Virus record (IMG/VR): IMGVR_UViG_2654587728_000013
Coordinates: 1-43,613 of that record
DNA: 43,613 nt
Source of the DNA: a virus
Taxonomy: Duplodnaviria > Heunggongvirae > Uroviricota > Caudoviricetes
Reading direction: 5' to 3' (one strand)
The first letter of the stretch is position 1, and every line of letters starts with the position of its first letter. Shown one piece after another: positions 28,501 through 43,613 of this stretch. The translations under genes were made by a program, and so were the position numbers. The notes beneath the pieces are model-generated. The model did no database searches, was not told where the DNA came from, and saw nothing but the letters and a program-made list of their open reading frames with translations.

Positions 28501-31046
28501 TGGCTAACGAATTTCTTACGCAATGCGAAATGACCGTCAATGCAGCTGCCGGGCGCAAGCTGTCTGATGACGAAATGGAATCTTTGGTGCGTGACATGAA
28601 CGACACCACAAACCGGATACTGGCTGGTAATGAAGCACTGACGCTGGAAGAAGCAGCGATGCGCGCCGCGCAGGAGCTTGGTAATCGCGAGCAACTGGCT
28701 AAAGTCATTGAGGCACGGAATAAGGCCATTAATACCCGTATTGCAGCTCAGCGCCTTGGCGAGCTTCGCCGGACTTGGAAAGACCGTCCGGACATCGGTC
28801 TGGAGGCTATTCTTGTCGGACGTAATGACGCGCGCACTGGTTCCCGCCGCTCGGTATCCTCTGAGGTTGCCCAACTGCGCGGTAAGTATCATGCTGGTAT
28901 CAACTATGATTTCGACCAGGCAGGACTGGTTAAATTTATTGCCAGTGGCAGCAATGACCGCGAGATAGCCGACGCCATGTGGCGCATTGGCCGCGGACAG
29001 AAAACGGACGGTATGACGCCGCAATCAGTCAGTGCCGCTAAGATCATCATGAAGTGGCAGGAAACTGCGCGCGTGGATGAAAACCGTGCTGGTGCCTGGA
29101 TTGGTAAGATGCCTGGCTACATCGTCCGGCAGTCGCATGACATACTGAAAATCCGTGCCGCCGGGTATGAATCCTGGCGCAATACCATTCTGCCGCGGCT
29201 GGATGATGCCACCTTTGACGGGATCACAGACCGAGAAGGGTTCCTGCGTGGTGTCTACGACGGCCTTGCCTCCGGTGTGCACCTTACCTCTGAAAAACCA
29301 GACTGGATGAATGGCTTTAAGGGATCGGCGAATGCGGCCAAACGAGCCAGCCAGGAGCGGGTGTTGCACTTCAAAGACGGTGTTAACTGGCACGAATACA
29401 ACGAGCAATTCGGAACTGGCAGCCTGCGTGAGGCAGTATTCGGCGGACTGAACAGCGCGGCGCGCACTACGGGCATGATGCGCGTGCTTGGTACCAACCC
29501 GCAGAACATGTTCAAGTACCTGACAGACACCATCGCAAAAGACGTGAGCAAGCAGAGCAACCCTTCGGCGCTGGCTGATTTCATGACCAAGGTGCGCCGC
29601 CTGAATCGCACGGTTATGCCACAGGTTGATGGATCGCTGAATATCCCCGGCAGTGTTGGCTGGGCTAATGCCTCAGCCAACGTGCGCGGCTGGCTGCGTA
29701 TGAGTCAGCTTGGAGGAGCGGTCATTTCATCTTTTAACGACGTGCCAATCTCGGCGACAGAAATGCGGTATCAGGGCCAGAACTTCATGCAGGCGCTGAC
29801 CGGCGCGATGAAGGGGCGCTTTTCCCGCTACACCAGTGATGAGCAGAAGGAGATCCTTTCATCTATCGGCGTTTACTCCGACGCGATGACGCAGGAAATC
29901 ATCCGTCGCATGTCTGGCGACGACAGCATGAGCGGCAAGATGGGGCGTGCGCAGCAGCTATTCTTCAAATACAACCTTATGAACTTCTGGACAGAATCCG
30001 GGCGTAACAGCAACGCCATGATGATAACAAACTGGCTGGCGAAGAACGCCGATCAGCAATTTTCTGCACTGCCGGAGGACCTGCGCCGCGTTCTGGACCT
30101 GCACGGCATAGGTGACGCTGAATGGAATATCTACCGCAGCATGGACATGGCAGACAGCGAAGGCCGCAAATTCATGACGACCAGCGGAATTCGTGGCGTT
30201 CCGGATGAGGTGATAGCCTCATATGTTGAAGGAAAAGGCATGAAGGTCACCGAGCGATCTATTGCCGATGCGAGAGACACGCTGGAAAGCCAACTTCGTG
30301 GGTATATTCTTGACCGACTAAACATCGCTATGTCAGAGCCGGGAGATCGTACGCAGGCGTTTATGAAGATGGGCACTGTACCAGGAACAGTAGCTGGGGA
30401 GGCAATACGTTTCGCTGGTCAGTACAAATCGTTCACTGCGAGTTTCATGCAGAACGTGCTTGGACGTGAGGTATTCGGGCGCGGTTATACTCCCGCTGGC
30501 CTGGGTGAATCAAAAACAGGATCGCTGACGAATGCGCTGCTGCGTAACGGAAAAGGTGCATTCTTGGGGGCGGCAAACCTGTTCGTCTGGGCAACCATGT
30601 TTGGCTATATCTCTATGCAGTCGAAACTATTGCTTAAGGGGCAGACGCCGCGTCCGGCAGATGCCAAGACATTCCTCGCAGCCGCATCTCAGGGCGGCGG
30701 CCTAGGCATCTTGGGCGACTTCATGTTTGGCGAAGTCAATCGCATGGGTGCTGGTCCAGTGACATCATTGATGGGGCCAGCCGCGTCGAACGCTGATAGC
30801 ATTATCACGCTGTTCCAGCAGACAACGCGCGGCGATGCAGACCTGGGTGACTGGTATCGCACCGCGCTGGACAATACGCCTTTCCTTAACGTGTTCTGGC
30901 TGCGCACAGCAATGAATGGTTTAATATTGAACCGTATACAGGATGCTCTTGACCCTGGATCACTGGAGCGCTATCAGCGCCGTGTTGAACGGGAGCAGGG
31001 TAACGACTTTCTGATCCCACCATCGCAGTTCATGCTAGGGAAGTAA
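28500..31046 (+). CDS. large internal virion / ejection protein (putative)
   Basis: 848 aa; last large gene of the core block. Confidence 0.5.
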   Translation: MANEFLTQCEMTVNAAAGRKLSDDEMESLVRDMNDTTNRILAGNEALTLEEAAMRAAQELGNREQLAKVIEARNKAINTRIAAQRLGELRRTWKDRPDIGLEAILVGRNDARTGSRRSVSSEVAQLRGKYHAGINYDFDQAGLVKFIASGSNDREIADAMWRIGRGQKTDGMTPQSVSAAKIIMKWQETARVDENRAGAWIGKMPGYIVRQSHDILKIRAAGYESWRNTILPRLDDATFDGITDREGFLRGVYDGLASGVHLTSEKPDWMNGFKGSANAAKRASQERVLHFKDGVNWHEYNEQFGTGSLREAVFGGLNSAARTTGMMRVLGTNPQNMFKYLTDTIAKDVSKQSNPSALADFMTKVRRLNRTVMPQVDGSLNIPGSVGWANASANVRGWLRMSQLGGAVISSFNDVPISATEMRYQGQNFMQALTGAMKGRFSRYTSDEQKEILSSIGVYSDAMTQEIIRRMSGDDSMSGKMGRAQQLFFKYNLMNFWTESGRNSNAMMITNWLAKNADQQFSALPEDLRRVLDLHGIGDAEWNIYRSMDMADSEGRKFMTTSGIRGVPDEVIASYVEGKGMKVTERSIADARDTLESQLRGYILDRLNIAMSEPGDRTQAFMKMGTVPGTVAGEAIRFAGQYKSFTASFMQNVLGREVFGRGYTPAGLGESKTGSLTNALLRNGKGAFLGAANLFVWATMFGYISMQSKLLLKGQTPRPADAKTFLAAASQGGGLGILGDFMFGEVNRMGAGPVTSLMGPAASNADSIITLFQQTTRGDADLGDWYRTALDNTPFLNVFWLRTAMNGLILNRIQDALDPGSLERYQRRVEREQGNDFLIPPSQFMLGK

Positions 31047-31047
31047 T

Positions 31048-31419
31048 ATGAACAGAATTATATTAATGACTCTTCTTATTTTTTTTGTTGGAAAAGCTTC
31101 TGCTGATACTACATCACCTTTAATGATTCAGCCTAAAAATGGAGAAACATTGGAGGATTCTAAAAAGCATACAATGGAATACTTTGGATGCATAAAAGGG
31201 CAGGCTGTAAAGTATGCCAAGACAGGAGAAAGTGTTGATTCCATATCAAAAGCTTCGGTTGTGTCATGCGAGTCATATATACCAATGATCGCCGAGTCGA
31301 ATATATATTATTTAAACTCTTCGCAAGATGGTAAGCGGCAATTTACAGAAAGGCTAAAATCTGATGGTGAGAGATTAGCCACAAAATTTGCCATGGATGA
31401 GAAGATTAAAAATAAATAG
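31048..31419 (+). CDS. small secreted protein (AT-rich moron)
   Basis: 123 aa; signal peptide MNRIILMTLLIFFVGKASA; visibly low GC (estimated ~35%, not computed). Confidence 0.55.
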   Translation: MNRIILMTLLIFFVGKASADTTSPLMIQPKNGETLEDSKKHTMEYFGCIKGQAVKYAKTGESVDSISKASVVSCESYIPMIAESNIYYLNSSQDGKRQFTERLKSDGERLATKFAMDEKIKNK

Positions 31420-31427
31420 GTGACCAC

Positions 31428-31724
31428 ATGCAAGCTATTGGTTTCATTGTTTACATAGTTGTTGGTCTTTTTCAGTTGGCTGCGATCATGGCTGGTCTTG
31501 AATCGTGGTGGGGACTGCACTGGATAGTGGCTGCACCCATTGCTTTCATCGTTAGTTATATCCCGTTGGTCGGTTCCATTGTTGGAATGGTTGGCGCTGT
31601 CGACGTATGGCGTTGGGAATGGTGGCAGGCAGGGCTTCTTTTCTTTGGCGGCCTGGTTTTTGCTATTGCGTGCGGGGGGATGTCTTCGTTCTTCGAATGG
31701 CTATCCTTCAGGAAAAGAGCGTGA
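31428..31724 (+). CDS. small three-TM membrane protein
   Basis: 98 aa; three hydrophobic helices; RBS AGGTGA; stop overlaps GTGACATGTCAC palindrome. Confidence 0.55.
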   Translation: MQAIGFIVYIVVGLFQLAAIMAGLESWWGLHWIVAAPIAFIVSYIPLVGSIVGMVGAVDVWRWEWWQAGLLFFGGLVFAIACGGMSSFFEWLSFRKRA

Positions 31725-31732
31725 CATGTCAC
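31721..31732. repeat. 12-bp palindrome GTGACATGTCAC (copy 3 of 3)
   Basis: Exact copy overlapping stop of 31428..31724; GC hairpin 25 bp downstream. Confidence 0.6.
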
Positions 31733-31748
31733 AAAGGCCACTGCACCC

Positions 31749-31771
31749 ACAAAAAAGCCCGCGTCGCGGGC
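31749..31771 (-). terminator. rho-independent terminator (minus strand; possibly bidirectional)
   Basis: GCCCGCG-T-CGCGGGC hairpin with A-run on plus / T-run on minus, directly after stop of 31772..32236. Confidence 0.55.
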
Positions 31772-32236
31772 TTACTCTTCTTCATCGCTACCAAAGAGCG
31801 GGTTATCGTTGTAGTCAGAGAGAAGAAACGGTATGTGCTCCCTCGAATACCCAACCACAACTATTTCATCTCCGTCTTTCGCATAGTGAATGCATTCATT
31901 TGAATGCTTCCCACCAGGGTTGAATTTTAAGTCAACAGTATGATTTCTGAAGGTGTTAGGATACCACGTGGGACCACAATGATAGTGCCAGTAATTTTCC
32001 TGCTCATAATTGTCTGAACCGGGAATTTTATCATAGTTGTCGTCAACCCAAGATGGCTTGTTTTTACCTACAAGCGTTCTGCCATTGGCAACATCTTCCA
32101 TAAAATTTTGGATGGTTTCCAACTCCAGGTCCGTGAGATGTGGTCCATCTACTGCGAAAGGTTCGTTACTGGCACCGGTTATAAAGCCAAATGCAACCCT
32201 AGGCTTAAACTTCAAGTTACACCCCTGACAGGTCAA
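31772..32236 (-). CDS. hypothetical protein with acidic C-terminal tail
   Basis: 154 aa; only start-like codon at 5' end is TTG immediately after in-frame TAA of upstream small ORF; start uncertain. Confidence 0.4.
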   Translation of the reverse strand: MTCQGCNLKFKPRVAFGFITGASNEPFAVDGPHLTDLELETIQNFMEDVANGRTLVGKNKPSWVDDNYDKIPGSDNYEQENYWHYHCGPTWYPNTFRNHTVDLKFNPGGKHSNECIHYAKDGDEIVVVGYSREHIPFLLSDYNDNPLFGSDEEE

Positions 32237-32404
32237 TTATTTTGCGCGAAATGCCGCCTTGAAGTCGTTGAAAGAAGTCCCTGACTGATAAGTCATGTCC
32301 TGGTCGCGATCTTTGTTAGCGCGACCAAGCATTACTTTACCAATGGCATCCCAGCATTGCTTGGCTTGCTCATTTTGTTGAGTCCGATTTTTCAACGCTG
32401 TCAT
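32237..32404 (-). CDS. small ORF (55 aa) in same frame as downstream 154-aa ORF
   Basis: Found by manual translation (below ORF-track size cut-off); strong RBS AGGAGA; ends at TAA followed in frame by TTG of next ORF. Confidence 0.35.
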   Translation of the reverse strand: MTALKNRTQQNEQAKQCWDAIGKVMLGRANKDRDQDMTYQSGTSFNDFKAAFRAK

Positions 32405-32418
32405 AGTGCGTCTCCTTC

Positions 32419-32435
32419 TTTACCTTTGAGGTAAT
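32419..32435. promoter_or_regulatory. operator copy TTTACC-TTTGA-GGTAAT over RBS of small ORF
   Basis: Perfect TTACC-N5-GGTAA. Confidence 0.5.
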
Positions 32436-32499
32436 ATTACGCGAATCTACGTCACACCGCCAATGATTATTTTATAGGCGCATCCCTGCGCCATCGTCA

Positions 32500-33198
32500 T
32501 CAGAACTTACCAGTCATGCTGTTGATGTACTGCGCATGAGTCTGGATATCGCGCAGGCATTTACTGGCGCCGACAATGTAGCTCATCATGGCCGCGAACT
32601 CTGCTACAGCACCTTCAACATCATGCCCGTCTGCGTCCAGTTGGCGTAGCAGGCTCATCATCAAAGAGTGCTCTGTCAGACCAAGAACACCTTCAGGTGA
32701 ATGGATGTGTTCACGGTAGTTTGGCTTGAGTGGGGCGCTGTATTCCTGTTTCTCTTCCGTCTTCATCGCTTCCAGAATGGCGGGCATGAAGCTGGCTACA
32801 ACCTTTTGCGCTTTGTCTGCCGGTGATAATTCTTCACGAACGTATCGACCAGTGCGGCGGATTTGCGGAAGAACGTCGCCAGTTACCCATTTGCGGAAAC
32901 GATAGGGGATAGTACCAGGAGTTACCGCATCGCGGCAGCGCAGGATCAGAGTGTAGAGGCCGGATTCAGAGATGATGAGGGTATTAGGGTTCCCTCGTTT
33001 TCCGTCGGTTAAAGCGACGGTATTCTTTTCGTCGTCATCCAATTTAAGCAGAGCATCACGGTTGTTTGATATACCAAGAGCATTACATACATCTAACGCA
33101 ATAAACCATGGCTCGCCGTCGATGATGATTGCACGAATATCGGCTTGCGATTCGAAAGAAAAAACTGAAGTATTTTTTTGAGTTGTCATAGTGATCAC
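32500..33198 (-). CDS. Bro-N domain antirepressor
   Basis: 232 aa; N-terminal FSFESQADIRAIIIDGEPWFIALDVCNALGI matches Bro-N; distinct C-terminal domain. Confidence 0.7.
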   Translation of the reverse strand: MITMTTQKNTSVFSFESQADIRAIIIDGEPWFIALDVCNALGISNNRDALLKLDDDEKNTVALTDGKRGNPNTLIISESGLYTLILRCRDAVTPGTIPYRFRKWVTGDVLPQIRRTGRYVREELSPADKAQKVVASFMPAILEAMKTEEKQEYSAPLKPNYREHIHSPEGVLGLTEHSLMMSLLRQLDADGHDVEGAVAEFAAMMSYIVGASKCLRDIQTHAQYINSMTGKF

Positions 33199-33457
33199 CT
33201 TTTAGTCTGGTTAATCACCACCGGAGGTTCCAATCTCGGAGGTGGTGAACTGTGCAGGGTTGGAACTACCGGCTAAAAGGACCCGGCGCACCTTTCGGTG
33301 CCCCCACACAGCCCACCATAATGCGAATGTGGCCGTGCTTAACGCATAAAAAAACCGCTTGCGCGGTGAATGCGCCTTTTAGTATCCGGGGTTCCAATCC
33401 CGGCACTGGATTTTGCCAGTGCCTGATCACTATGGCACAAGTATTTTGCGTTGTAAA

Positions 33458-33474
33458 TTTACCGTAAAGGTAAT
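33458..33474. promoter_or_regulatory. operator copy TTTACC-GTAAA-GGTAAT in antirepressor promoter region
   Basis: Perfect TTACC-N5-GGTAA. Confidence 0.5.
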
Positions 33475-33504
33475 AATAAACGCATTATGTAGGTTATTTC
33501 AACC

Positions 33505-33765
33505 TTATGTGGTTTGCTTGCGTAACTGTTCCGCACAGTAATCGAGATGCGTTTGCAGATCCTGCATGGTCATTTGAGAGCTTGTTACGTAATTCACAAG
33601 GGCAACCAATTCAGCCAGCGGCCCGTCAACGTTGAAGCCGTCTTTATCGAGTTCCCGCAGCAACTTCATCAGATGCGAGTCCTCCACCAGGGATCTAACG
33701 CCTACCGGCGTGTGTATTCTTTCCTCAAATCCTTCTTCCAGCGGATGGTGATACTGCCGTTGCAT
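33505..33765 (-). CDS. stand-alone paralog of the antirepressor C-terminal domain
   Basis: Aligns by eye to C-terminus of 32500..33198 (HLMKLLRELDKDGFNVDGPLAEL vs SLMMSLLRQLDADGHDVEGAVAEF); start at MQRQYHH with GGAG RBS. Confidence 0.5.
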   Translation of the reverse strand: MQRQYHHPLEEGFEERIHTPVGVRSLVEDSHLMKLLRELDKDGFNVDGPLAELVALVNYVTSSQMTMQDLQTHLDYCAEQLRKQTT

Positions 33766-33840
33766 CTCTTCTTCTCCATGCAATCACTGTATAAACATAC
33801 AGTAGCAGAAGATTTACTGACTATCCAGCACGAAATGTAA

Positions 33841-33857
33841 ATTACCTGTAAGGTAAT
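33841..33857. promoter_or_regulatory. operator copy ATTACC-TGTAA-GGTAAT between antirepressor paralog and tailspike
   Basis: Perfect TTACC-N5-GGTAA in divergent intergenic region. Confidence 0.5.
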
Positions 33858-33962
33858 AAAGTATGTGTTCATTCCTCATTAGGTTCATATAAGGTTTTTA
33901 TGGTAATACAATGATTCAGAGTGCATGCGCGCCGGGCGCAAAAGCAATCTGGAGAAAATGAC

Positions 33963-36650
33963 ATGACGGTTTCAACCGAAGTTGACCACAATGACTACAC
34001 AGGTAACGGGGTCACGACATCATTCCCATATACCTTCCGAATTTTTCATAAGTCTGATCTGGTGGTGCGGGTTGTTGACCTGAGCGAAAACATCACTGAA
34101 TTAACACTGGACACTGACTACACGGTGACAGGTGCTGGCGGATATACTGGCGGGAATGTTGTTTTATCGTCGCCTCTTGCCAATGGTTATCAGATTTCGA
34201 TATCCAGAGAGTTACCGGTTACCCAGGAGACTGATCTCAGAAATCAGGGTAAGTTTTTCGCAGAAGTGCATGAGGATGCTTTTGATAAGTTGACCATGCT
34301 GATACAGCAGGCAATTAGTTGGCTGCGCCTTTCTTTACGTAAGCCGTCTTTTATTGCAAATTATTATGATGCCCTGGGTAACTACATACGAAATCTTCGT
34401 GACCCGTCACGACCACAGGATGCAGCTACAAAAAATTACGTTGACGGAGTTGCTGAAGGTAACACTTCTTATGCAGATTCTCTATTTAAAAGAACCTTAA
34501 GAGTTCCTGAGGATTATGTTGACCAGATACCATCAAATGCTGATAGATCAAATAAAATACTTGCTTTTGATTCTGGCGGTAAACCTATTGCTGTTTTACC
34601 TGAATCTGGTTCTGCTTCAGATGTTTTAATTGAGCTGGCAAATAACGGTGATAAAAAAATTGGTAGCTCATATGGAGGCACAGTTTATAGCGACTACCAA
34701 CGATCAATTTTTGTCAAAAAGGCAGAATTTTCTTCAGGTTTAACCATTTCATCAAAGAATGATGCTTGTCTTTATGCTGATGGGCTATGGTACGTATGGA
34801 CTGGAGCATTACCTCACACCATCTCGTCTGGTGAATTTCCGGATGTCGAAACAACTAAATGGGCATGCGTTGGACTTCTGAATGGTTACCGAATCAATGA
34901 AGTAAAAAATTTCATTGAGAAACCCGGCATCACAAATGATTCACCAGCAATTAAACTTGCTATTTACTCGTTAGTGCGTCTTGGCTACGGAGAGTTGATT
35001 GTTACAGCTAACTCAAAAGTAAACATAATCACAGAGGTTGCAATACCATTTGCCATTGATGGAATCCCTGTATCCATAGGAATAAGAGGTGAAGGTGTAA
35101 TAAACTCTCTGGGGAATGTCCCAGAGATAAGGTTTGGACTTAACTCAAGGGGGATTGTGTTTGGTAATGTTTGCTATTCATTAGACCGCCTGGTGTTATC
35201 ACAATATGTAGGATCAGAAAATACAGATGTGATAAGCAAAACATCCAACACCATTACTCTGGTATCAAATCCATTTCAGGCTAATGGTGGAAATATAATT
35301 ACATGGCCTTTGACTGACAACAACACCGCAGGTGTTCCAGTAAGTAACTTCTGTCAATTCAGCACTAACTCTGGGGCTTTCTTTGCTACAGGACTTGTTA
35401 ATAACTCTGATGGGAGTTGTACATTAACCGGAGTTACTGGGTGCAATGGAACCCCTTCGTCAGAGATATCGAACGTCACAAAAGTTGTCAGATTTACATC
35501 AAGAGCGCATCAGTTACCAGATGACACCTATCCGCGCACAGCAGCATGCATCAGTTTAGATGTCATAGAGAACCCTACTATAAGCAACTTATGGGTTCTG
35601 CAAACATATCGAACTTTCTCATTCAAAGATGGAAATGGAGGCGGAGAAGGTTCAGGTCTGGGTCATTACGGATTGTGGAATGACATCATAGTCGATGGGA
35701 CCAAAGAATTTGTAGGCGGTACAGATTTGAGTGGCGGCAGCATTCAAGGAATTGAAGGCGGACAGTTTGTTAATATCCATCTGTTTGGTACTAAGTATGG
35801 TTTTCGTGGCCGAAGAATGAAGTCATGTATGTTCTCAAACTGCACACACTATGCTTTTACAGGCGGTAAAATATTTGACATTCTGGAGTTTGATGGTTTT
35901 TCATGGGGAGGCGGTTCTATTGGTTGGAACTCAGGTTCTGGGTACATCAGCAATGTTATGGATTGTGTAAATGGTGATAACATTACATTCACCGGTGTTA
36001 AGTTTGGTAGGCACCACACTACAGAATCAGGACCGGCTTTTAAATGCTCATCTCGTTTTACTAATTTTTCATTTACCGGAAACAGCCATGAATCAGTGAG
36101 CGAAGGTGGATTCACTGATATTGGTTTCTTTGATGTAAATGAATTTTCTAGATCAAGTATTGGCGAAAACGCAATTGGGTTTAATGGTAATGGGCAACCA
36201 ACACTAACGATGTCTACTTCTGCACCTGATATTGCAAGATTCGCAGGTACTAGATTTAATCAGCCTGTTCTCACAAATGCCCCTGCTGGCATTTATGATA
36301 ACGAACATACTTCAGGTAAAGGAACATTCTATTCTACATCAGACTATCGTGACTCAGGTAAGATTTTAATAATACCTGATATTAACTCGGCCTCACCATG
36401 GCCTGATGATTCTAGAAATATAATAAAATTTGGCGGTACTTTATCTCCTGGTAAAACTCTAATGCTTCCAGAGCTAACTATATTGAATGGGACGCTTCTT
36501 AGGAGCATGGTTTTACTAGATCTTTCATCAGTAAATTTCAATGGTCAGACTATCGGTATTTATAATGGACCTACACTTATAACTACATTGTCATCACAAG
36601 GAATATATGAGTTTCTTAGTGTAGGATCTACTTATTACAGGATAAAATAA
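33963..36650 (+). CDS. tailspike / receptor-binding protein (mosaic)
   Basis: 895 aa from ATG with GGAGAAAA RBS (ORF track start 33921); N-terminal region of normal GC, C-terminal ~2.2 kb AT-rich and Gly/Asn/Ser/Thr-rich. Confidence 0.7.
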   Translation: MTVSTEVDHNDYTGNGVTTSFPYTFRIFHKSDLVVRVVDLSENITELTLDTDYTVTGAGGYTGGNVVLSSPLANGYQISISRELPVTQETDLRNQGKFFAEVHEDAFDKLTMLIQQAISWLRLSLRKPSFIANYYDALGNYIRNLRDPSRPQDAATKNYVDGVAEGNTSYADSLFKRTLRVPEDYVDQIPSNADRSNKILAFDSGGKPIAVLPESGSASDVLIELANNGDKKIGSSYGGTVYSDYQRSIFVKKAEFSSGLTISSKNDACLYADGLWYVWTGALPHTISSGEFPDVETTKWACVGLLNGYRINEVKNFIEKPGITNDSPAIKLAIYSLVRLGYGELIVTANSKVNIITEVAIPFAIDGIPVSIGIRGEGVINSLGNVPEIRFGLNSRGIVFGNVCYSLDRLVLSQYVGSENTDVISKTSNTITLVSNPFQANGGNIITWPLTDNNTAGVPVSNFCQFSTNSGAFFATGLVNNSDGSCTLTGVTGCNGTPSSEISNVTKVVRFTSRAHQLPDDTYPRTAACISLDVIENPTISNLWVLQTYRTFSFKDGNGGGEGSGLGHYGLWNDIIVDGTKEFVGGTDLSGGSIQGIEGGQFVNIHLFGTKYGFRGRRMKSCMFSNCTHYAFTGGKIFDILEFDGFSWGGGSIGWNSGSGYISNVMDCVNGDNITFTGVKFGRHHTTESGPAFKCSSRFTNFSFTGNSHESVSEGGFTDIGFFDVNEFSRSSIGENAIGFNGNGQPTLTMSTSAPDIARFAGTRFNQPVLTNAPAGIYDNEHTSGKGTFYSTSDYRDSGKILIIPDINSASPWPDDSRNIIKFGGTLSPGKTLMLPELTILNGTLLRSMVLLDLSSVNFNGQTIGIYNGPTLITTLSSQGIYEFLSVGSTYYRIK

Positions 36651-36672
36651 AAAAGCGGGGCATTGACCCCGC
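36642..36672 (-). terminator. rho-independent terminator (minus strand)
   Basis: GCGGGG-CATTGA-CCCCGC hairpin preceded on plus strand by A-run (T-run on minus). Confidence 0.55.
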
Positions 36673-36732
36673 AGCTAAACTATCTTCGAATCTTATTAAT
36701 TATCTTTCTTCCTAGATTAACAAAAGGCTTTT

Positions 36733-37698
36733 CTACTGTCCTGTAGAAATAATTAAAGGAATACCATTTATTAAATTGAAGTAACTTTTATATCCAACAA
36801 AGAAAGCAGAAGGATACTTATCACTCACATTTAATCTTTTCCCTAATCCGTATTTAGTGTCTAACCATACCACAACTTCATCATTATGTTTGTTCTTTGC
36901 AGTCATGCGGTAAACATTTGGATATTTACCCTTAGGGCCACTATCATTTGGTCCGCTGGAGGTGTCTTTCCATTCTTGAGAGTCACCTGATTCATAACAA
37001 ATTGAACTGTTAGCATACAGTTGGGAAAGTGCAGTTTGTAGTCCGTAGTAAGTGTGTATCCTCACCTTTTCAAGGGGAACCATTTTGATATGCACATCTG
37101 CACGTCCTTCATTAAATTTCATTTTTACTTTCTGTTGAATAATCTCTCTACCAGAACCATCTTTCTTTTTGGTGTTAAAGCCCTGTATGTTAGACGTAGT
37201 TTCTATCACTAAATCATTTGTATACCCCTTAAATGTATCATTGACCATCTTCCCATCTACCCATACCTGAAGAGAAACATGCCTGGCTGTAGGAGAGCCA
37301 CTCTGGTTCCCATTAAACCCATGCCAGCCACCTGTGAACTCAGCTATTGGGTCATCACCATCTTCATTACTTTCTGCGCTGACCATAATTGGTCCAATGA
37401 TGTCCGTGTCGAATGTTTGAACTGTCGTTAACCCATCCAGTCTGCCACTGGGAAAATCTGTATACTTCCAAGAAAAATTTTTGTAAATCCTTGAAAATGA
37501 AAATATTTTGTTAAGACCAGTTCTATTAAGCTCAATTACCCGGTCTTCAAGTAGTGAATATTTGTACTGAATTTTTATGTCTGCGTTCGGAACATCAACA
37601 CTAACGTACTGTTTTTCTTTTGCAACATCCTCAGACGCTGTTCCTGCTAACGTGCAAGCTATGATGATAAACAAAGAAATTGATATCGTTTTTTTCAT
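36733..37698 (-). CDS. predicted lipoprotein, function unknown (AT-rich moron)
   Basis: 321 aa; signal peptide with lipobox-like IIAC; low GC; convergent with tailspike. Confidence 0.55.
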   Translation of the reverse strand: MKKTISISLFIIIACTLAGTASEDVAKEKQYVSVDVPNADIKIQYKYSLLEDRVIELNRTGLNKIFSFSRIYKNFSWKYTDFPSGRLDGLTTVQTFDTDIIGPIMVSAESNEDGDDPIAEFTGGWHGFNGNQSGSPTARHVSLQVWVDGKMVNDTFKGYTNDLVIETTSNIQGFNTKKKDGSGREIIQQKVKMKFNEGRADVHIKMVPLEKVRIHTYYGLQTALSQLYANSSICYESGDSQEWKDTSSGPNDSGPKGKYPNVYRMTAKNKHNDEVVVWLDTKYGLGKRLNVSDKYPSAFFVGYKSYFNLINGIPLIISTGQ

Positions 37699-37816
37699 GC
37701 CAATTTACCCGAAAACAATCTTGTAGTAATCATAACTTTTCTGTGCATTTTTTTCATTTTGTTAGATTTATCCACAAATAATGTGTAGAAACTCGCCAAG
37801 AGTGTCATAGTTTATT

Positions 37817-37834
37817 TAAACCATATATGGTTTA
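37817..37834. promoter_or_regulatory. 18-bp perfect palindrome TAAACCATATATGGTTTA
   Basis: In divergent promoter region between lipoprotein gene and lysis cassette. Confidence 0.4.
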
Positions 37835-37894
37835 TTGTGTATGATGTGATCACCAACTAATGGGGGTCTTTATGCACAGTAAACGGTGGTCACC

Positions 37895-38299
37895 ATGTCA
37901 GCCCAGCTAACCAGTGAGTCTTTAAATCAGTGGCTTAGTATGGGTTCTCTGGCTGCAGTGATCGCAGGAGTTCCACCCGAAGTGGCGCTTGGTGCTTTAT
38001 CAGGTGCGGTAATATTTATTACCTCAGCCGTTGAGTATCCAATACGCCGCCGGGTTCTCCTGTCGATGCTCAGCTTCCTCTGCGGGCTTCTATTCTACAA
38101 ACCAACTGCATCAATCCTTATCGGCGTAGCCAGCCTGATCCCAACTATCACACAGGATTCATTCGAGAAAGGGATCGTCTTCTCTGCTGGCGCGTTCGTG
38201 TCGGCAATCGTCGCAGTACGTATTGGTATCTGGCTCTATCACCGTTCCGACAATCCACGCGATTTAATCCCGGGGAGAAAAGACGATGACAACTCATGA
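37895..38299 (+). CDS. holin-like membrane protein (about 4 TM)
   Basis: First gene of lysis cassette; multiple hydrophobic helices; ORF track start is GTG at 37886. Confidence 0.45.
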   Translation: MSAQLTSESLNQWLSMGSLAAVIAGVPPEVALGALSGAVIFITSAVEYPIRRRVLLSMLSFLCGLLFYKPTASILIGVASLIPTITQDSFEKGIVFSAGAFVSAIVAVRIGIWLYHRSDNPRDLIPGRKDDDNS

Positions 38300-39689: not shown

Positions 39690-40120
39690 CATGGCATTTT
39701 TCATGGTACTGATTTCCGGTGACGGTATATAAAACGGTACGGTAAAAATCGGTTTCAGGAAAATTGTTGTCAGTCAATTAGTTATGCTTACCGTAAATAA
39801 TTGAGTGGGAATGATTTAACGTCTGGCAACAGCCTGCACGTAAAAGCAGTAAAGTACCTCTAAGCCCGCGTAACTGCGGGCTTTTTTGTTTTTGTATCTG
39901 GCACTTTCTGGCAGCTGTTAGCAACGGGAAGCACGGTTTTTTCAATGGAATTTTTGATGGTACTCTCTGGTTTCGAATTCAGGTTTGAAAAAGTACCATG
40001 TGATAAATTTCGGTTGAGTTATGGTATTTATTTTTTATAACTCAATTAAAAACAGAGAGTTAAACAAGTTTTCTGAATTTTTTACAACATGGTATTTTTG
40101 ATAAAGGAAAACAATAAAAC
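39690..40120. other. candidate attP / integrase arm-site region
   Basis: Non-coding 430 bp upstream of int with repeated ATGGTA(C/T)T elements at 39702, 39955, 40019, 40088 and inverted copy AGTACCATG at 39992. Confidence 0.4.
39862..39893 (+). terminator. rho-independent terminator after lysis cassette
   Basis: AAGCCCGCG-TAACT-GCGGGCTT followed by TTTTTGTTTTT. Confidence 0.7.
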
Positions 40121-41311
40121 ATGTTGACTGACACCAGGCTGCGTCACCTTAAGCCGAAGGAGAAACTCTATAAAGTTAATGACCGTGATGGTCTGTATGT
40201 TGCGGTCACTCCGGCTGGAACTATTTCATTTCGTTATAACTATTCAATAAACGGAAGACAGGAGACCGTTACTTTTGGCCGCTATGGTGTTGGAGGGATC
40301 ACGCTTGCAGAAGCGCGTGAACGGCTCAATGAAGCTAAAAAAATGGTTGCCAGTGGAAGATCGCCAGCGAGGGAAAAAGCTAGAGATAAAGCTCGTATCA
40401 AAGATGCGGAGACTTTTGGTGCATGGGCTGAGAAATGGTTACGCGGTTATCAAATGGCTGAATCGACGCGTGATATGCGGCGTTCGGTATATCAAAGGGA
40501 GTTGAAGTCAAAATTTGCGCAGCAGAAATTGACCGAGATTACACATGAAGACTTACGCGCATTAACCGATAACATTGTCGAGAGAGGGGCACCGGCGACA
40601 GCTGTGCACGCCAGAGAGATTGTATTGCAAGTCTATCGCTGGGCTATTGAGCGCGGTCAGAAGGTTGAGAATCCCGCTGATCTGGTACGGCCTGCAAGCA
40701 TAGCGAAATTTGAGCCTCGTGACAGGGCATTGACGCCAGTTGAAATTGGTCTGATGTATCGGTACATGGAACGGGTAGGAACGACGCCATCAATCAGAGC
40801 AGCGGTTAAACTTTTGCTGTTAACGATGGTACGTAAAAGTGAGCTTACTAACGCAACCTGGAACGAGATCAATTTTAGTGAGGCATTATGGACGATACCA
40901 AAGGAGAGGATGAAACGACGTAATCCACATTTGGTTTTTCTTTCCAGACAGGCAATGGATATTATGATTGCTCTCAAAACCTTTGCCGGTAGCTCTGATT
41001 TTATCCTTCCTTCGCGGTACGATTCCGATGCGCCAATGAGTAGCGCTACTTTAAACCGGGTTTTGACACTGACGTATCGTCTGGCTCAGAAAGAAGGGGA
41101 CTTGTTACCTAAGTTTGGTCCCCATGACTTACGGCGTACTGCCAGCACCTTGCTACATGAGGCCGGGTACAATACTGACTGGATTGAGAAGTGCCTTGCC
41201 CATGAACAAAAGGGGGTACGAGCTGTTTATAACAAGGCTGAATATCGTGAGCAGAGGGCCGAGATGCTACAAGATTGGGCGAATATGATTGATGAATGGA
41301 CTAGTAAGTAG
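40121..41311 (+). CDS. int: site-specific tyrosine integrase
   Basis: 396 aa; N-terminal arm-binding-like domain (LTDTRLRHLKPKEKLYKV), C-terminal catalytic region with HDLRRT and conserved Tyr context. Confidence 0.9.
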   Translation: MLTDTRLRHLKPKEKLYKVNDRDGLYVAVTPAGTISFRYNYSINGRQETVTFGRYGVGGITLAEARERLNEAKKMVASGRSPAREKARDKARIKDAETFGAWAEKWLRGYQMAESTRDMRRSVYQRELKSKFAQQKLTEITHEDLRALTDNIVERGAPATAVHAREIVLQVYRWAIERGQKVENPADLVRPASIAKFEPRDRALTPVEIGLMYRYMERVGTTPSIRAAVKLLLLTMVRKSELTNATWNEINFSEALWTIPKERMKRRNPHLVFLSRQAMDIMIALKTFAGSSDFILPSRYDSDAPMSSATLNRVLTLTYRLAQKEGDLLPKFGPHDLRRTASTLLHEAGYNTDWIEKCLAHEQKGVRAVYNKAEYREQRAEMLQDWANMIDEWTSK

Positions 41312-41434
41312 TTAATAATCAGTGATTTAAGTGGATATACTTCTTTTATCTACGCCAGGAGAGCAATTTTAGCCGCTAAAATTTACTGAATCTTTACTGG
41401 TTTTATCTGGATTGCATAAAAAGGAAAAATAAAA

Positions 41435-42064
41435 GTGCCTGAGTTGTCTGTAATTATACAATGGATGAATCAATACCCTAAGACCGGCTGGCTATTGCTG
41501 TGTATCTATATTGCACTCGGTGTAGTTCGTCACAGAGTAATTAATGCTGAATCTGGAAGTGTATTTCGTGGACTACTCAATCTTAGGAAGCGCCGGCTAG
41601 AGCAAATGCTGACACAGCCATATTTGAATAAAAATGCGGTCCGTCTGGCAAAGCGTGAGCTTCGTCAGCGCAGCCTTTATCGGCTCACAGGCTTGTATAA
41701 TTATCGGCTGCAGGATTTGGCTGTAATAATGTGTGATCGTTATGGGTTGCGGGCTGGTTATCTCAAGCCGTGGCGTAACTGGCTCGAAGAACGGGATGGA
41801 CGGATTGTGTTCAACAGGAAATGGCATTGTTTTCGCTGGCGTCTTTTTCTGGTAGGTCAGATTGTAAACACAGTTCTACTAATCTTATTCATTATGTATA
41901 TAGTTTCTCATTCTTCGGCCGAAATGATCGCACCGCTTATGTTACTCTTCATGCTTGTATGGTGGTTTCCTTGGCTAATGATCACCTCGGTACCTACCCC
42001 TAGGTGGACTCGCGAAATGGAAGTCTATCTTGAGAAATTTAACGCTGAACAGACCATGGTTTAA
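41435..42064 (+). CDS. membrane protein, function unknown (AT-rich, integrase-adjacent)
   Basis: 209 aa; one N-terminal and two C-terminal TM helices around a basic cytoplasmic region; GTG start (ATG alternative at 41465). Confidence 0.45.
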   Translation: MPELSVIIQWMNQYPKTGWLLLCIYIALGVVRHRVINAESGSVFRGLLNLRKRRLEQMLTQPYLNKNAVRLAKRELRQRSLYRLTGLYNYRLQDLAVIMCDRYGLRAGYLKPWRNWLEERDGRIVFNRKWHCFRWRLFLVGQIVNTVLLILFIMYIVSHSSAEMIAPLMLLFMLVWWFPWLMITSVPTPRWTREMEVYLEKFNAEQTMV

Positions 42065-42641
42065 ACTGTTCTTTGTTACCATGCATTCAGAGTGAATTGT
42101 CAGAGTTTTGGAAGATTCCATCCTACGAGTAATACTCACAAGGTAATTCACATAATCAATAGGTTAAGTCATAAGCTTCTTGACCCTACATGAGAAGACG
42201 AATTTTAGCTGCTAAAAGTTTGGGCATATTTGGACTTAAATGCCACCGACATGATTCTAATAATTAAGCCAGTACCTAATGAGCCAAGAGAAGACAACTG
42301 TAAACGCCCCTTGGCTTAGACTTGCTTTCAGGAAAGCGAATGCTTTTTATGGTCAGGGACAAGTAAGGGGATGAGCCATTGCATAACCATAAAACCAATT
42401 CGTTCTATGTCATTACAGATCGGCTTCAGTGATTTACTGGTGAGGTAGTATCACTGTGATCCGTTTTGCATAACGCTTACAGCTGCGCTACAAACAATAA
42501 ACTATAATACTGTATTTTCAAAATCATCAATTTGAAGCAGGGTAATCGCGAAAAACCCTCGTAAGTGGCTGGTTATAATTCAATAAAGTGGATGATATTA
42601 AGACTTAAACTGCCACCATAATAGCTCGTGGATATACTATT

Positions 42642-43613
42642 TTAAATATTAAATTCTTTCCTCACAGACGCTAAGGCCTTGGACACAGCCTGCTTTGTCA
42701 TAGTTGTGTAGTGATTTTTTTCTAAAACCTGTGCGGTTTCAAACTGGTTAAAACCTTGGTGTTTTAATATGATTATTTTTTTCTTAGTATCAGTGAATTT
42801 GGAGTCAACCATTCGTCTGGCAATATTCCTAAGTTTATCTAGATCTGCTGGGGTTAAAGTTTGACCCTGCATCCACTCATGAAAATAGGTATCAATCAAT
42901 ATATCCCCTGTGTTTGCGTTAGCTTTATGCGGTTTAGCGCATTGCCGTCTAAGCCTTATTAATTCTTTATTGAACTGTTCGAGAGACCGCTTTCCTTGTC
43001 TGTATTTGGGATTCCATAGACCATTGGTGAGTTTGGGCCTATGGTCAGAACAATATCGATGACTAAGGACCTGTTTTTCATGAACGGGGAACTCATTATC
43101 GTTAGCAACAAATTCTGATATCTCACTGATCAACTTGGAAAATTCGGTTAGATTACCGCAGAACTCGCAATAACCGAGCTTACGCTGTGAATTTATAGTT
43201 ACTCCTTTTGCAGGAGAGGATTTCTTCGGCCGCTTGGATGCGCACTCACTGACTAATTCAATAAGAGACTCAATCGTAGCGGTAAAGCATTTATCAAGAG
43301 AAGTTTGTTGATCTAAAGTCAGAACGAAATTACGCAAAAGAAGTCTTTGTGCCTGTACTACGACGTTTAAGCCCACTTTTTTAAGTACATCACTAAATCC
43401 TAGATTTACTCCAGAAATGTAGTCTTTATGACTTGGTGGCAGGGAATTTACATAAGCAGCTACTGCTGGATCAATAACTTCCTGTATGAGACGCAGTATT
43501 GGATACCTCCGTGAAAATATGGAGTACGGATAACTACGCTCTACAAATAATTTAATTGCAGCTGCAACTGTGAGGTCACAGCCTTCCCAGATAGTAATTT
43601 TCATGTCAACCAT
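42642..43613 (-). CDS. hypothetical protein with C-terminal HTH (LuxR/sigma-70 region-4-like), possibly truncated at window edge
   Basis: 323 aa; AT-rich; C-terminus IIILKHQGFNQFETAQVLEKNHYTTMTKQAVSKAL; first ATG is the last 3 nt of the window. Confidence 0.45.
   Translation of the reverse strand: MVDMKITIWEGCDLTVAAAIKLFVERSYPYSIFSRRYPILRLIQEVIDPAVAAYVNSLPPSHKDYISGVNLGFSDVLKKVGLNVVVQAQRLLLRNFVLTLDQQTSLDKCFTATIESLIELVSECASKRPKKSSPAKGVTINSQRKLGYCEFCGNLTEFSKLISEISEFVANDNEFPVHEKQVLSHRYCSDHRPKLTNGLWNPKYRQGKRSLEQFNKELIRLRRQCAKPHKANANTGDILIDTYFHEWMQGQTLTPADLDKLRNIARRMVDSKFTDTKKKIIILKHQGFNQFETAQVLEKNHYTTMTKQAVSKALASVRKEFNI

Follow-up and report, generated by a model that had tools for sequence, protein, structure and literature searches.

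IncP plasmids are major carriers of multidrug resistance, and islands of the PIME and GIsul2 types, integrated at guaA, spread defence systems and resistance genes in an IncP-dependent manner. KorB, the ParB-type and CTP-dependent sliding clamp of IncP plasmids, serves both as global repressor and as partition protein. According to the searchable text of a recent preprint, from which the statements on PIME elements below are taken, PIME1 elements excise, replicate and transfer only when an IncP conjugative plasmid is present (bioRxiv 10.64898/2026.01.12.698999, 2026; hereafter the PIME preprint). IncP-induced excision and replication have been reported there for two other PIME1 elements, and the excised, replicating island is reported to lower the abundance of the plasmid pB10, an effect termed "potential incompatibility". 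In the same text, the plasmid-encoded inducer is stated to be unknown and the incompatibility with the helper is left unexplained. An attB core, GAGTGGGA, at the 3' end of guaA has been described for another island, GIsul2 (PMC9376610), whose overall similarity to PIME elements is low and limited to mobility genes (PIME preprint). In a different helper group, the mobilizable island SGI1 hijacks parABS, the partition system of the IncC plasmid that serves as its helper (PMC10954446).

The window analysed here, i.e., the whole stretch of 43,613 nucleotides, contains an epsilon15-like prophage and, in tandem with it at the attachment site in guaA, the left end of a PIME1-type element (Table 1). 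The last phage DNA is 85–91% identical to the attP region, in which IHF and Int sites are annotated, of 27 phage records, epsilon15 and phiV10 among them, and the match to these phages is confined to a 120-bp attP arm which ends at about position 39820. The attachment core, common to attB, attP, attL and attR (alignment A9), is at once the attR of the prophage and the left junction of the island, and it includes the GIsul2-type core. In prophage-free genomes, the match begins at 39800 and runs rightward; to the right of attR, the sequence is 99.8% identical to prophage-free E. coli, immediately 3' of guaA. Uetakevirus prophages such as epsilon15 and phiV10 use the same guaA core and encode an Int 52% identical to the island integrase, but they contain none of the block 39819-43613. 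The block 41312-43613, which lies outside attR, was absent from all 50,697 phage records searched; it had no match in PLSDB (distant mode) either, and a plasmid origin of the block was thus rejected. A sub-threshold Rfam match to Trp_leader is due to the intrinsic terminator of guaA.

A first-pass annotation of this DNA had described 41312-43613 as a low-GC block downstream of int and, being an integrase-proximal variable region, as a possible carrier of defence or exclusion cargo, which amounts to a phage-borne moron or defence island adjoining the phage integrase. The low GC content stands (39.9%, against 50.8% in the phage part, 1-39799) and, together with an integrase gene at the end of a prophage-containing window, it would suit such a reading. 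However, the epsilon15-like homology ends at the att core, the entire block sits beside guaA in 33 prophage-free E. coli genomes, and neither of its two proteins has a PHROG match. The integrase itself belongs to the other element: it is found adjacent to guaA without any prophage and, in one complete genome with the same tandem arrangement, the prophage carries its own int at the opposite end. Cargo of the phage can hardly be upheld as an explanation, and a phage cassette was rejected on the basis of the att alignment and of the prophage-free loci. For genome scans, two cautions follow: a prophage window can extend into a neighbouring island using the same attachment site, and the only integrase visible in such a window may be that of the neighbour.

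Table 1. Features at the prophage–island junction and in the left end of the island (window coordinates)
Feature	Position	Strand	Remarks
Right attP-type arm of the epsilon15/phiV10-like prophage	39700..39799	+	Final phage DNA of the window
Attachment core ATTGAGTGGGAATGATTTA	39800..39818	+	Final codons and stop of guaA
guaA intrinsic terminator	39862..39893	+	Terminator scan; same sequence at guaA loci without prophage
Tyrosine integrase of the PIME1 island, P4-type with Arm-DNA-bind_3 domain	40121..41311	+	Pfam PF13356, PF22022, PF00589
GTGGATATACT, copy 1	41331..41341	+	Contains a TATACT -10-like hexamer; chance level
OB1, perfect IncP KorB operator sequence (TTTAGCCGCTAAA core)	41367..41381	.	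Identity to OB oligonucleotide (PMC11790492)
orf209, conserved inner-membrane protein, 209 aa	41435..42064	+	Occupies the cargo slot
OB', KorB-operator variant with central T (TTTAGCTGCTAAA)	42203..42217	.	Differs from OB1 only in the central base
Hairpin GGCAT...ATGCC	42226..42247	-	Holds motif 3 copy 1; stem GGCAT/ATGCC kept in types A and C
Conserved non-coding module, ~290 nt	42270..42562	-	Three sequence types, 78-87% alike
Imperfect direct repeat, copy 2, ATATTAAGACTTAAACTGCCACC	42595..42617	+	Just right of the module; sequence type A only
GTGGATATACT, copy 2	42628..42638	+	Chance level
LuxR-family core regulator of the PIME1 island, 323 aa	42642..43613	-	Convergent ORF

Judged from homology and gene order, the region to the right of 39800-39818 is the left end of an integrative mobilizable element of the PIME1 type, with int, a variable cargo slot and a LuxR-family regulator. 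Integration is at the 3' end of guaA with int next to the junction, and the layout matches that of prophage-free genomes, where the gene order in the 99.8%-identical loci is int, slot, luxR, alpA, repA, traJ, trbJ, trbK, trbL. The divergent pair of luxR-family and alpA regulators typical of PIME1 is completed just past the end of the window, the position of alpA being read from one of these loci (L002) and from Pantoea, where the gene product matches PF05930. Co-occurrence of replicase, trbJ and trbL defines the search for PIMEs in the preprint (bioRxiv 10.64898/2026.01.12.698999); these three genes lie outside the window, directly downstream in L002 and in 11 of the 12 genome loci found via LuxR. 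As described there, PIME1 elements such as PIME1EcRHB23-C07 share with the present island and its related loci the guaA site, the P4-type integrase, the divergent luxR-family and alpA genes, repA, the series traJ-trbJ-trbK-trbL, large, defence-rich cargo and an accessory slot that separates int from the regulators. Of this description, the window covers int, the slot and luxR only. Similarly, GIsul2 has the same attB core, alpA and rep genes after its int, and transfer genes of the Trb type; it differs, as judged by its description, in carrying sul2, CR2 and an arsenic-resistance module, which are not seen in the related loci.

Among the short repeats which the first-pass annotation had proposed to mark the boundaries of the membrane-protein gene, the motif TTTTAGC(C/T)GCTAAAA is far above chance: it occurs twice in the window, where chance predicts 0.12 occurrences even if one mismatch is tolerated, and none of 100 shuffles reached two, while two perfect 7+1+7 palindromes arose in only 0.8% of the shuffles of the region. 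Its two copies are the only repeats of the set to flank this gene, motif 3 bracketing the non-coding module instead. A role as cassette boundary was not borne out. In its sequence, the palindrome TTTTAGCSGCTAAAA agrees at every base with OB, the operator of KorB. OB1 (TTTTAGCCGCTAAAA), about 55 bp past the int stop and 54 bp before the start of orf209, is an exact match to 13 sites on the enterobacterial IncP plasmid pPSS-04_3, which encodes KorA, IncC and KorB, and it is the same as the IncP-1 OB (TTTAGCSGCTAAA; RK2/RP4 and related plasmids) over 15 bp including the flanking T/A. The 13-bp palindrome TTTAGC(G/C)GCTAAA is thus exact at 41368-41380 and departs at the central base (T) at 42204-42216. 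At this base, OB' differs from the S (G or C) present at 13/13 pPSS-04_3 sites; the T is kept in the Phytobacter copy, and OB' corresponds to the int-proximal OB of the island lineage with a 344-aa LuxR. Like IncP-1 plasmids, PIME1 islands have several spread-out OB copies, and some islands also have a perfect KorA operator, GTTTAGCTAAAC, upstream of traJ. Unlike in these plasmids, the sites are on a chromosomal island, no KorB gene was found in the searched loci, and both sites of this region sit between the 3' ends of genes and not at promoters. An integron-like gene cassette was rejected, the flanking repeat being a perfect 7+1+7 palindrome identical to OB and not of attC type, and the integrase being P4-type with an arm-binding domain and not an IntI.

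The survey of OB sites, made on islands other than the two PIMEs of the preprint's experiments, covered Escherichia, Phytobacter, Pantoea, Serratia, Lonsdalea, Dickeya, Buttiauxella, Erwinia, Citrobacter, Vibrio, Salinivibrio, Aeromonadaceae and Uliginosibacterium. Complete PIME1 loci contain 2-4 perfect OB sites each, at fixed positions: about 55 bp past the int stop, about 25-30 bp past the luxR stop, upstream of traJ, and inside the 5' end of trbJ. Every PIME1 locus examined (Enterobacterales, Vibrio, Aeromonadaceae and one betaproteobacterium) has a perfect OB beside the stop of int or of luxR; the Vibrio loci have none next to int, and the int-proximal position is therefore not universal. 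The site is invariant, the DNA flanking it poorly conserved or unalignable. Neither the phage portion of the window (39.8 kb) nor the retrieved chromosomal flanks contained an OB. By tblastn, KorB, IncC, KorA, TrbA and KorC had no match in six island loci (one of them, L002, near-complete) or in the window, while TraJ, TrbJ and TrbL were found in 6/6 of these loci, the window ending before their genes. Since the searches of these island sequences turned up no homolog of korB, incC, korA or trbA, the OB sites are orphan operators. The OB internal to trbJ occurs at the same place in the plasmid trbJ, and TrbJ is 85-91% identical to that of pPSS-04_3, so that at least this copy could be inherited with the gene. 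KorB, operators and palindromes are not mentioned in the searchable text of the PIME preprint, and orf209 and the non-coding module are absent from its description of PIME1.

As the best explanation of the whole locus, which we consider probable on sequence grounds, a prophage and a PIME1 island stand in tandem and the orphan OB sites of the latter would act as loading sites for the KorB of a helper plasmid. Upon entry of an IncP helper into the cell, its KorB would load at the island OB sites, one of which is always in the gap between the 3' ends of int and luxR, the others being at traJ and trbJ. Such loading could tie transcription of the island to the helper regulon, for example if KorB slid to distant promoters or if it separated the convergent int/orf209 and luxR transcripts as a roadblock or insulator. 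In the excised, replicating island, the OB sites could constitute a centromere, segregation being ensured by the IncC-KorB proteins of the helper. A multicopy island could also soak up KorB, which would explain the reported drop in helper plasmid abundance. Perfect, conserved and orphan, the OB sites at fixed positions are a concrete candidate for the basis of both the IncP induction and the helper incompatibility. Points against this explanation are the central T of OB', the trbJ copy shared with the plasmid gene, the lack of an int-proximal OB in Vibrio and the invariant recognition helix of LuxR, in view of which a protein of the island might bind the sites. It is tempting to go further and to propose orphan KorB operators as the means by which PIME1 islands detect and exploit IncP plasmids, through a switch from the silent to the excising state and through KorB-IncC titration or mis-partition lowering helper copy number, in which case a chromosomal island would be wired into the global regulon of a plasmid by operator sites alone; this extension is put forward tentatively, as a possibility which we do not favour over its negation, and the known function of KorB as a repressor counts against KorB binding switching excision on. 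The proposal is reminiscent of SGI1 (PMC10954446), likewise a mobilizable island with sequence sites for a ParB-family protein of its helper, and would parallel it in combining self-stabilisation with interference with the helper. SGI1 differs in helper group, in site sequence and in the protein involved, KorB being also a global repressor and sliding clamp.

Other readings of the palindromes have to be weighed against this one. The sites might be inert relics carried along with traJ and trbJKL derived from an IncP-like plasmid, which would fit both the trbJ-internal OB, at the identical place in plasmid trbJ, and the high identity between the island and pPSS-04_3 TrbJ proteins. However, the sites on the int and luxR sides adjoin no plasmid-derived gene, and they stay perfect even though LuxR is only 37-40% identical and the flanking DNA unalignable. 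A neutral 13-bp sequence would be expected to decay as its surroundings did, and we regard the relic explanation as improbable. Binding by the island LuxR or AlpA, rather than by plasmid KorB, with the identity to OB reflecting shared ancestry or mimicry, could be invoked from the recognition helix of LuxR, whose invariance in 24 homologs implies a conserved DNA target. Yet the luxR-alpA divergent promoter region, at which a regulator of this kind should act, holds no OB-like sequence, even with one mismatch allowed, and the site is the exact plasmid consensus, flanking T/A included, while the perfect KorA operator found upstream of traJ in some islands points to plasmid regulators. Recognition by an island regulator thus appears improbable.

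The idea of boundary motifs survives in another form, in which the palindromes are crossover points for the exchange of cargo modules between islands, KorB binding being possible as well. By comparison with an empty-slot island, the orf209 segment is bracketed by two OB-containing copies of about 26 bp, variable material falls between OBs wherever two occur, and the arrangement of the window resembles a two-lineage recombinant. Against it, Vibrio islands have 3.6-5.9 kb of cargo separating int from a single OB, a second one being absent, no dedicated recombinase for OB sites is present, and 13-17 bp is short for RecA-dependent exchange. Such a role is in our opinion unlikely. In the explanation which we prefer, OB' and the duplicated operator around orf209 would record a recombination between two island lineages, one contributing an int-OB-orf209 arm and the other an OB-module arm.

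The slot between int and the convergent regulator holds variable cargo: nothing in E. coli L6-21, an EexN entry-exclusion lipoprotein in other E. coli, CBASS in Vibrio cincinnatiensis and ABC-3C in V. injensis; in PIME1MmNCTC12028, a restriction-modification system has been described at this place (PIME preprint). In the present island, the slot is occupied by orf209, correctly recognized early on as a membrane protein: it combines a C-terminal hairpin of two strong transmembrane segments with a basic domain (about 100 aa) and, at the N-terminus, a weaker hydrophobic helix. The suggestion of defence or exclusion cargo holds for the slot, in view of its contents in relatives, but is not supported for orf209, which has no match in PADLOC (E up to 1), PHROGs or Pfam, no informative fold match, and is syntenic in one island lineage across several genera. 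One may still suppose that orf209 is an exclusion or defence effector, blocking for example plasmid or phage entry and shut off by helper KorB at the operator. The company it keeps in the slot, the location of OB1 just upstream of its start codon and its faster evolution than int (79% versus 97% amino-acid identity in Lonsdalea) speak for such a function; the lack of any defence, phage, Pfam or fold match, and a synteny which is stable within one lineage and not sporadic, speak against it, and leave it rather doubtful.

The convergent ORF, presented in the first-pass annotation as an HTH protein within the cargo, is instead the conserved LuxR-family core regulator of the island. The ORF itself is real, and its HTH character rests on NCBI naming (LuxR family or transcriptional regulator for more than 416 homologs), on the precomputed HTH Pfam matches of one homolog and on model helices, namely a C-terminal run of four helices (model residues 258-316; AlphaFold2 pLDDT 81). 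For the regulator itself, Pfam returned no significant match, and PADLOC (E up to 1) and PHROG none. It has an invariant CxxC...CxxH motif, and the recognition-helix residues Q308, A309, S311 and K312 are invariant in 24 diverse LuxR homologs. The protein shares 40% of its residues with the 344-aa allele and 75% with that of Pantoea. Its start codon is on the final bases of the window; the 342-aa form present in databases would begin beyond them. In PIME1MmNCTC12028, deletion of luxR has been reported to abolish excision (bioRxiv 10.64898/2026.01.12.698999).

Between orf209 and luxR, the gap of exactly 577 bp (42065-42641) proved to be non-coding as proposed: across more than 30 RefSeq genomes, it has neither a conserved ORF nor an annotated gene. 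It contains a conserved module, also present in about 64 further E. coli islands without orf209 and in Phytobacter, Citrobacter, Buttiauxella and Erwinia. A closing helix (42294-42305 / 42474-42485) can be drawn; RNAalifold predicts 85 pairs, 7 with compensatory changes, and the folding z-score is -1.67 (window) and -3.03 (L004) on the minus strand versus -0.17 on the plus strand. The module is thus possibly a structured minus-strand RNA, for which it is a candidate. Rfam gave no match for the gap (42065-42641; E up to 1). When metagenomes were scanned for the pattern of the closing helix, only the known types and three chance matches were recovered, and the power of the covariation analysis therefore stays low. 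A protein-coding module was rejected, the sole ORF common to the three types (20-24 aa) having a shifting stop codon and, between types A and C, 1 synonymous and 7 non-synonymous changes (hand count). An RNA complementary to the helper was rejected as well, since no complementarity of at least 14 nt to two IncP plasmids was found except OB.

The two remaining motifs of the first-pass annotation fared differently. GTGGATATACT is present at 41331 and 42628, but it is not above chance (4 repeated 11-mers in the region versus 1.05 expected, p about 0.06), the corresponding intergenic regions of Pantoea and Serratia do not conserve it, and it was rejected as a functional motif. Motif 3 does occur twice, at 42233-42247 and 42602-42617, the copies being separated by a one-base indel (GACTTAAA-TGCCACC versus GACTTAAACTGCCACC) and not by the T/C substitution initially read. 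Both are part of a longer imperfect direct repeat (ATATT..GACTTAAA(C)TGCCACC) which brackets the non-coding module. The hairpin which holds the first copy has loops that differ between types A and C and is followed on the minus strand by a U-containing tract; from these features, it may be the terminator of the module transcript.

The first-pass annotation had pointed out a low-GC block downstream of an integrase gene as a possible carrier of defence or exclusion cargo, an observation which was partly confirmed. An epsilon15/phiV10-like (Uetakevirus) prophage takes up the bulk of the 43.6-kb window, and its left end carries the early genes, encoding an MT-A70 methylase, RecT and a PD-(D/E)XK nuclease-like protein, with the tail spike further right and a lysis cassette. 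When 39700-43613 was compared with 50,697 phage records, only the part up to 39820 matched; 27 phages, epsilon15 and phiV10 among them, have an annotated attP region 85-91% identical to it. Full-length copies of 39800-43613 were found in 33 complete E. coli chromosomes (98-99.8% identity), directly after an intact guaA and with no prophage, which places the block outside the phage. Within the prophage, a second low-GC stretch (42%) spans a BRO-N protein, the 909-aa tail spike and a 321-aa minus-strand ORF without Pfam match, and is probably a host-range or serotype-conversion region.

The window junction was aligned with epsilon15 attP, with guaA of a strain lacking the prophage, and with both attachment sites (attL, attR) of a related lysogen. 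A core, ATTGAGTGGGAATGATT(T)A, is common to all five sequences and corresponds to the end of guaA. To its left the window has phage sequence, and to its right chromosomal sequence that does not differ from the prophage-free strain. The full layout is visible in E. coli VE-V11-M: guaA, phage integrase, early genes, structural genes, lysis, attR and then a second integrase. The window begins just right of the expected position of the phage's own integrase, which is absent, and its only integrase therefore belongs to the neighboring element. The island and phage integrases, 52% identical, use the same core, which accounts for the tandem insertion. Two or more complete E. coli genomes likewise have an epsilon15-like prophage and a PIME1 island in tandem at one guaA core (~90% identity). 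Next to the core, a sub-threshold Rfam Trp_leader match (30.6 bits; gathering score 41) overlaps the guaA terminator hairpin and is almost certainly a false positive.

The identity of this neighbor was established from a 99.8%-identical locus of strain EH53, in which the integrase, the 209-aa ORF, the gap and the 323-aa ORF are followed by a 76-aa HTH regulator occupying the position of the Pantoea AlpA-type protein (PF05930), a RepA-family helicase, traJ, trbJ, a 57-aa gene at the trbK position, trbL, HigA, an ABC-3C system and IS100. The accessible text of a January 2026 preprint (bioRxiv 10.64898/2026.01.12.698999) defines PIME1 as a subfamily of integrative mobilizable elements with guaA integration, divergent luxR-family/alpA regulators, repA and oriV, an IncP-like oriT with traJ and trbJKL, and extensive cargo rich in defence genes; these elements excise and replicate only in the presence of an IncP plasmid (pB10 or pKJK5). 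Judged by its gene order, the neighbor of the prophage has PIME1 architecture. It is a member of this recently described family, with near-identical copies in many sequenced genomes. Between the att core and the island integrase, the island attL has inverted repeats and two direct repeats, ATGGAATTTTTGAT and ATGGTATTTTTGAT, which may be arm-type sites for the integrase or sites for IHF.

The palindromes flanking the membrane-protein gene, first taken for cassette-boundary motifs, have another identity. TTTTAGCCGCTAAAA (OB1) is identical to OB, the operator used in recent KorB biochemistry (ATTTTAGCGGCTAAAAG; PMC11790492), and the enterobacterial IncP plasmid pPSS-04_3 (45.5 kb), which encodes KorA, IncC and KorB, has 13 such sites. 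With one mismatch allowed, the OB pattern occurs twice in the window versus 0.12 expected. Perfect copies are present in every PIME1 locus fetched, at fixed positions: ~55 bp past the integrase stop, ~25-30 bp past that of luxR, ahead of traJ and within the first part of trbJ (5' end); the minimal Aeromonadaceae island has a single site, between the int and luxR stop codons. At the int- and luxR-proximal sites, OB is invariant across islands whose LuxR proteins are only 37-40% identical, with flanks poorly conserved or unalignable. Six island loci, one of them near-complete, were searched for KorB, IncC, KorA, TrbA and KorC without finding a homolog, while TraJ, TrbJ and TrbL were present in all six (48-71%, 57-91% and 34-61% amino acid identity to the plasmid proteins across the loci compared). 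The island operators are thus both conserved and orphan in the loci searched; KorB, the protein predicted to recognize them, is encoded by the helper plasmids. No paper linking KorB with guaA islands, GIsul2 or PIMEs was found in the literature searched, the accessible preprint text mentions neither KorB nor operators, and conserved orphan KorB operators in PIME1 appear to be new.

Some islands also have a perfect KorA operator (GTTTAGCTAAAC) upstream of traJ, in several cases ~95-150 bp from the KorB operator located there; the window's own lineage (L002) is without it. Island TrbJ is 85-91% identical in amino acids to TrbJ of enterobacterial IncP plasmids, and parts of trbJ-trbL match pKPC2_sg1 (90% DNA identity, 31% of a 3-kb query). 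Instead of pB10 or pKJK5, enterobacterial IncP plasmids may be the natural helpers of the E. coli islands.

KorB, a CTPase of the ParB family, is loaded onto DNA at OB and then slides, so that with KorA or TrbA as partner it can repress distant promoters (PMC11790492); with IncC, it also partitions the plasmid. Binding of KorB to OB1 in vitro is very probable, and a helper-dependent function of the island sites, be it regulation, partition or titration, is favored with less assurance. Located between the 3' ends of convergent genes, OB would be poorly placed for classical promoter occlusion and well placed as a loading site, a transcript roadblock or a centromere. According to the accessible preprint text, the plasmid-encoded inducer of PIME1 is not known, and the excised, replicating island sharply lowers pB10 abundance, termed "potential incompatibility". 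A multicopy array of KorB sites would predict exactly this drop. An equivalent is known from SGI1, which exploits parABS of its IncC helper plasmids (PMC10954446). How a repressor would trigger excision is the weakest step of this proposal. With the orphan KorB operators, the sensing of IncP helpers by these islands, and their interference with them, come down to a short experimental list.

The suggestion of integrase-proximal variable cargo held for the int-luxR interval, as a slot of the island and not of the phage. It contains the non-coding module only (E. coli L6-21, Buttiauxella, Erwinia), an EexN entry-exclusion lipoprotein, an 83-aa ORF and the module (other E. coli, Citrobacter), orf209 and the module (this window, Phytobacter), orf209 alone (Pantoea, Lonsdalea, Serratia), a gap of ~60 bp without cargo (Aeromonadaceae MAG), a CBASS system with patatin, DncV-like cyclase, E1/E2, JAB and Cap15-like receptor (Vibrio cincinnatiensis), an ABC-3C system (V. 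injensis) or, in the accessible preprint text, a restriction-modification system (PIME1MmNCTC12028). In a Serratia genome, a UvrD-type helicase and an OLD-family ATPase that has a TOPRIM domain form a Gabija-like pair 2-4 kb beyond orf209 and a luxR-homologous stretch.

orf209 is a real gene. Its homologs number 28 and are confined to Enterobacterales (E. coli, Pantoea, Lonsdalea, Serratia, an insect symbiont); they share 28 invariant columns and the start position, with ATG where the window has GTG. It directly follows the island integrase in every full-length context examined, and a truncated copy adjoins an integrase fragment on a Pantoea plasmid. The protein has a weak N-terminal hydrophobic helix, a ~100-aa basic domain (22 K/R versus 8 D/E) and two strong C-terminal transmembrane helices. 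Profile searches gave no family or defence-model match, nor was a fold match obtained. Compared with an empty-slot island, the orf209 segment is bracketed by two ~26-bp operator-containing copies. The right-hand one, OB', has T as its central base and is the counterpart of the operator next to int in the 344-aa-LuxR lineage; the int-OB1-orf209 arm (88-89%) and the luxR gene (78%) match the Pantoea/Serratia lineage, which points to a recombinant of two island lineages.

The convergent HTH protein is a core regulator and not cargo, since luxR deletion in PIME1MmNCTC12028 abolishes excision (accessible text of bioRxiv 10.64898/2026.01.12.698999). This 323-aa protein shares 75% identity with its Pantoea counterpart and 40% with the 344-aa regulator found in other E. 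coli PIME1 islands. NCBI uses the names "LuxR family" or "transcriptional regulator" for its homologs, which number more than 416 and are without Pfam domain. The protein has a CxxC...CxxH motif and, in the presumed recognition helix, Q-A-x-S-K, both of them invariant. Its structure was modelled with confidence (pLDDT 81), with four helices at the C-terminal end (residues 258-316); neither sequence nor fold searches of the PDB were informative. The window stops with the three bases of the start codon; P0031, a database form of 342 aa that is 98% identical, would have its start 57 bp beyond it, ~20 bp from the divergent HTH gene at the alpA position.

The conserved module inside the 577-bp gap is also found in ~64 further E. 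coli islands without orf209 and in four other genera, as three sequence types 78-87% alike, with no conserved ORF or Rfam match. The minus strand folds better than its shuffles, with z -1.67 (window) and -3.03 (type C); the plus-strand value is -0.17. A consensus fold of 85 pairs, with 98% of cells paired, includes a 13-bp closing helix; seven pairs carry compensatory changes versus 4.2 in shuffles (at least seven in 10 of 500), and many one-sided G-C to G-U changes keep pairing on the minus strand only. Since the structure was derived from the sequences on which it was judged, and these represent only three independent lineages, the data suggest but do not prove a structured minus-strand RNA. 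The module could also be a promoter plus leader, since in EexN-type islands it lies upstream of minus-strand cargo genes.

Of the other two repeats, the third motif brackets this module rather than the membrane-protein gene, as part of a ~23-33 bp imperfect direct repeat at its two ends; copy 1 forms a hairpin, GGCAT...ATGCC, kept in type C. GTGGATATACT is at chance level and absent from the relatives examined. Directly beside it, after the integrase stop, the 11-mer TCAGTGATTTA recurs exactly inside the module; for two adjacent 11-mers, each repeated in the gap, a chance origin is unlikely.

Positions of the features in the window and in the comparison loci (L-numbers)
Feature	Sequence	Position
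Second low-GC stretch	window	31000-38000
Lysis cassette	window	37.9-39.7 kb
Prophage/PIME1 tandem	window	39700-40120
Prophage/PIME1 tandem	L034	5900-7500; 44700-46400
att core	window	39800-39818
Trp_leader match	window	39818-39889
Repeats near attL	window	39945-40102
Inverted repeats	window	39989-40007 with 40081-40099
Island integrase	window	40121-41311
GTGGATATACT and TCAGTGATTTA	window	41319-41341
OB1	window	41367-41381
orf209	window	41435-42064 (+)
OB'	window	42203-42217
Module	window	42270-42562
Closing helix	window	42294-42305 with 42474-42485
Second TCAGTGATTTA	window	42426-42436
323-aa regulator	window	42642-43613 (-)
Beyond regulator start	L002	23815-23891
trbJ comparison, island	L002	26855-29228
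trbJ comparison	L011	26605-29125
trbJ comparison	L035	11985-14550
KorA operator	L004	9158-9169
KorA operator	L015	6266-6277
KorA operator	L016	6269-6280
KorA operator	L017	6266-6277
Vibrio slot	L018	9232-14728
Vibrio slot	L023	8772-12054
Gabija-like pair, Serratia	L008	10764-14962
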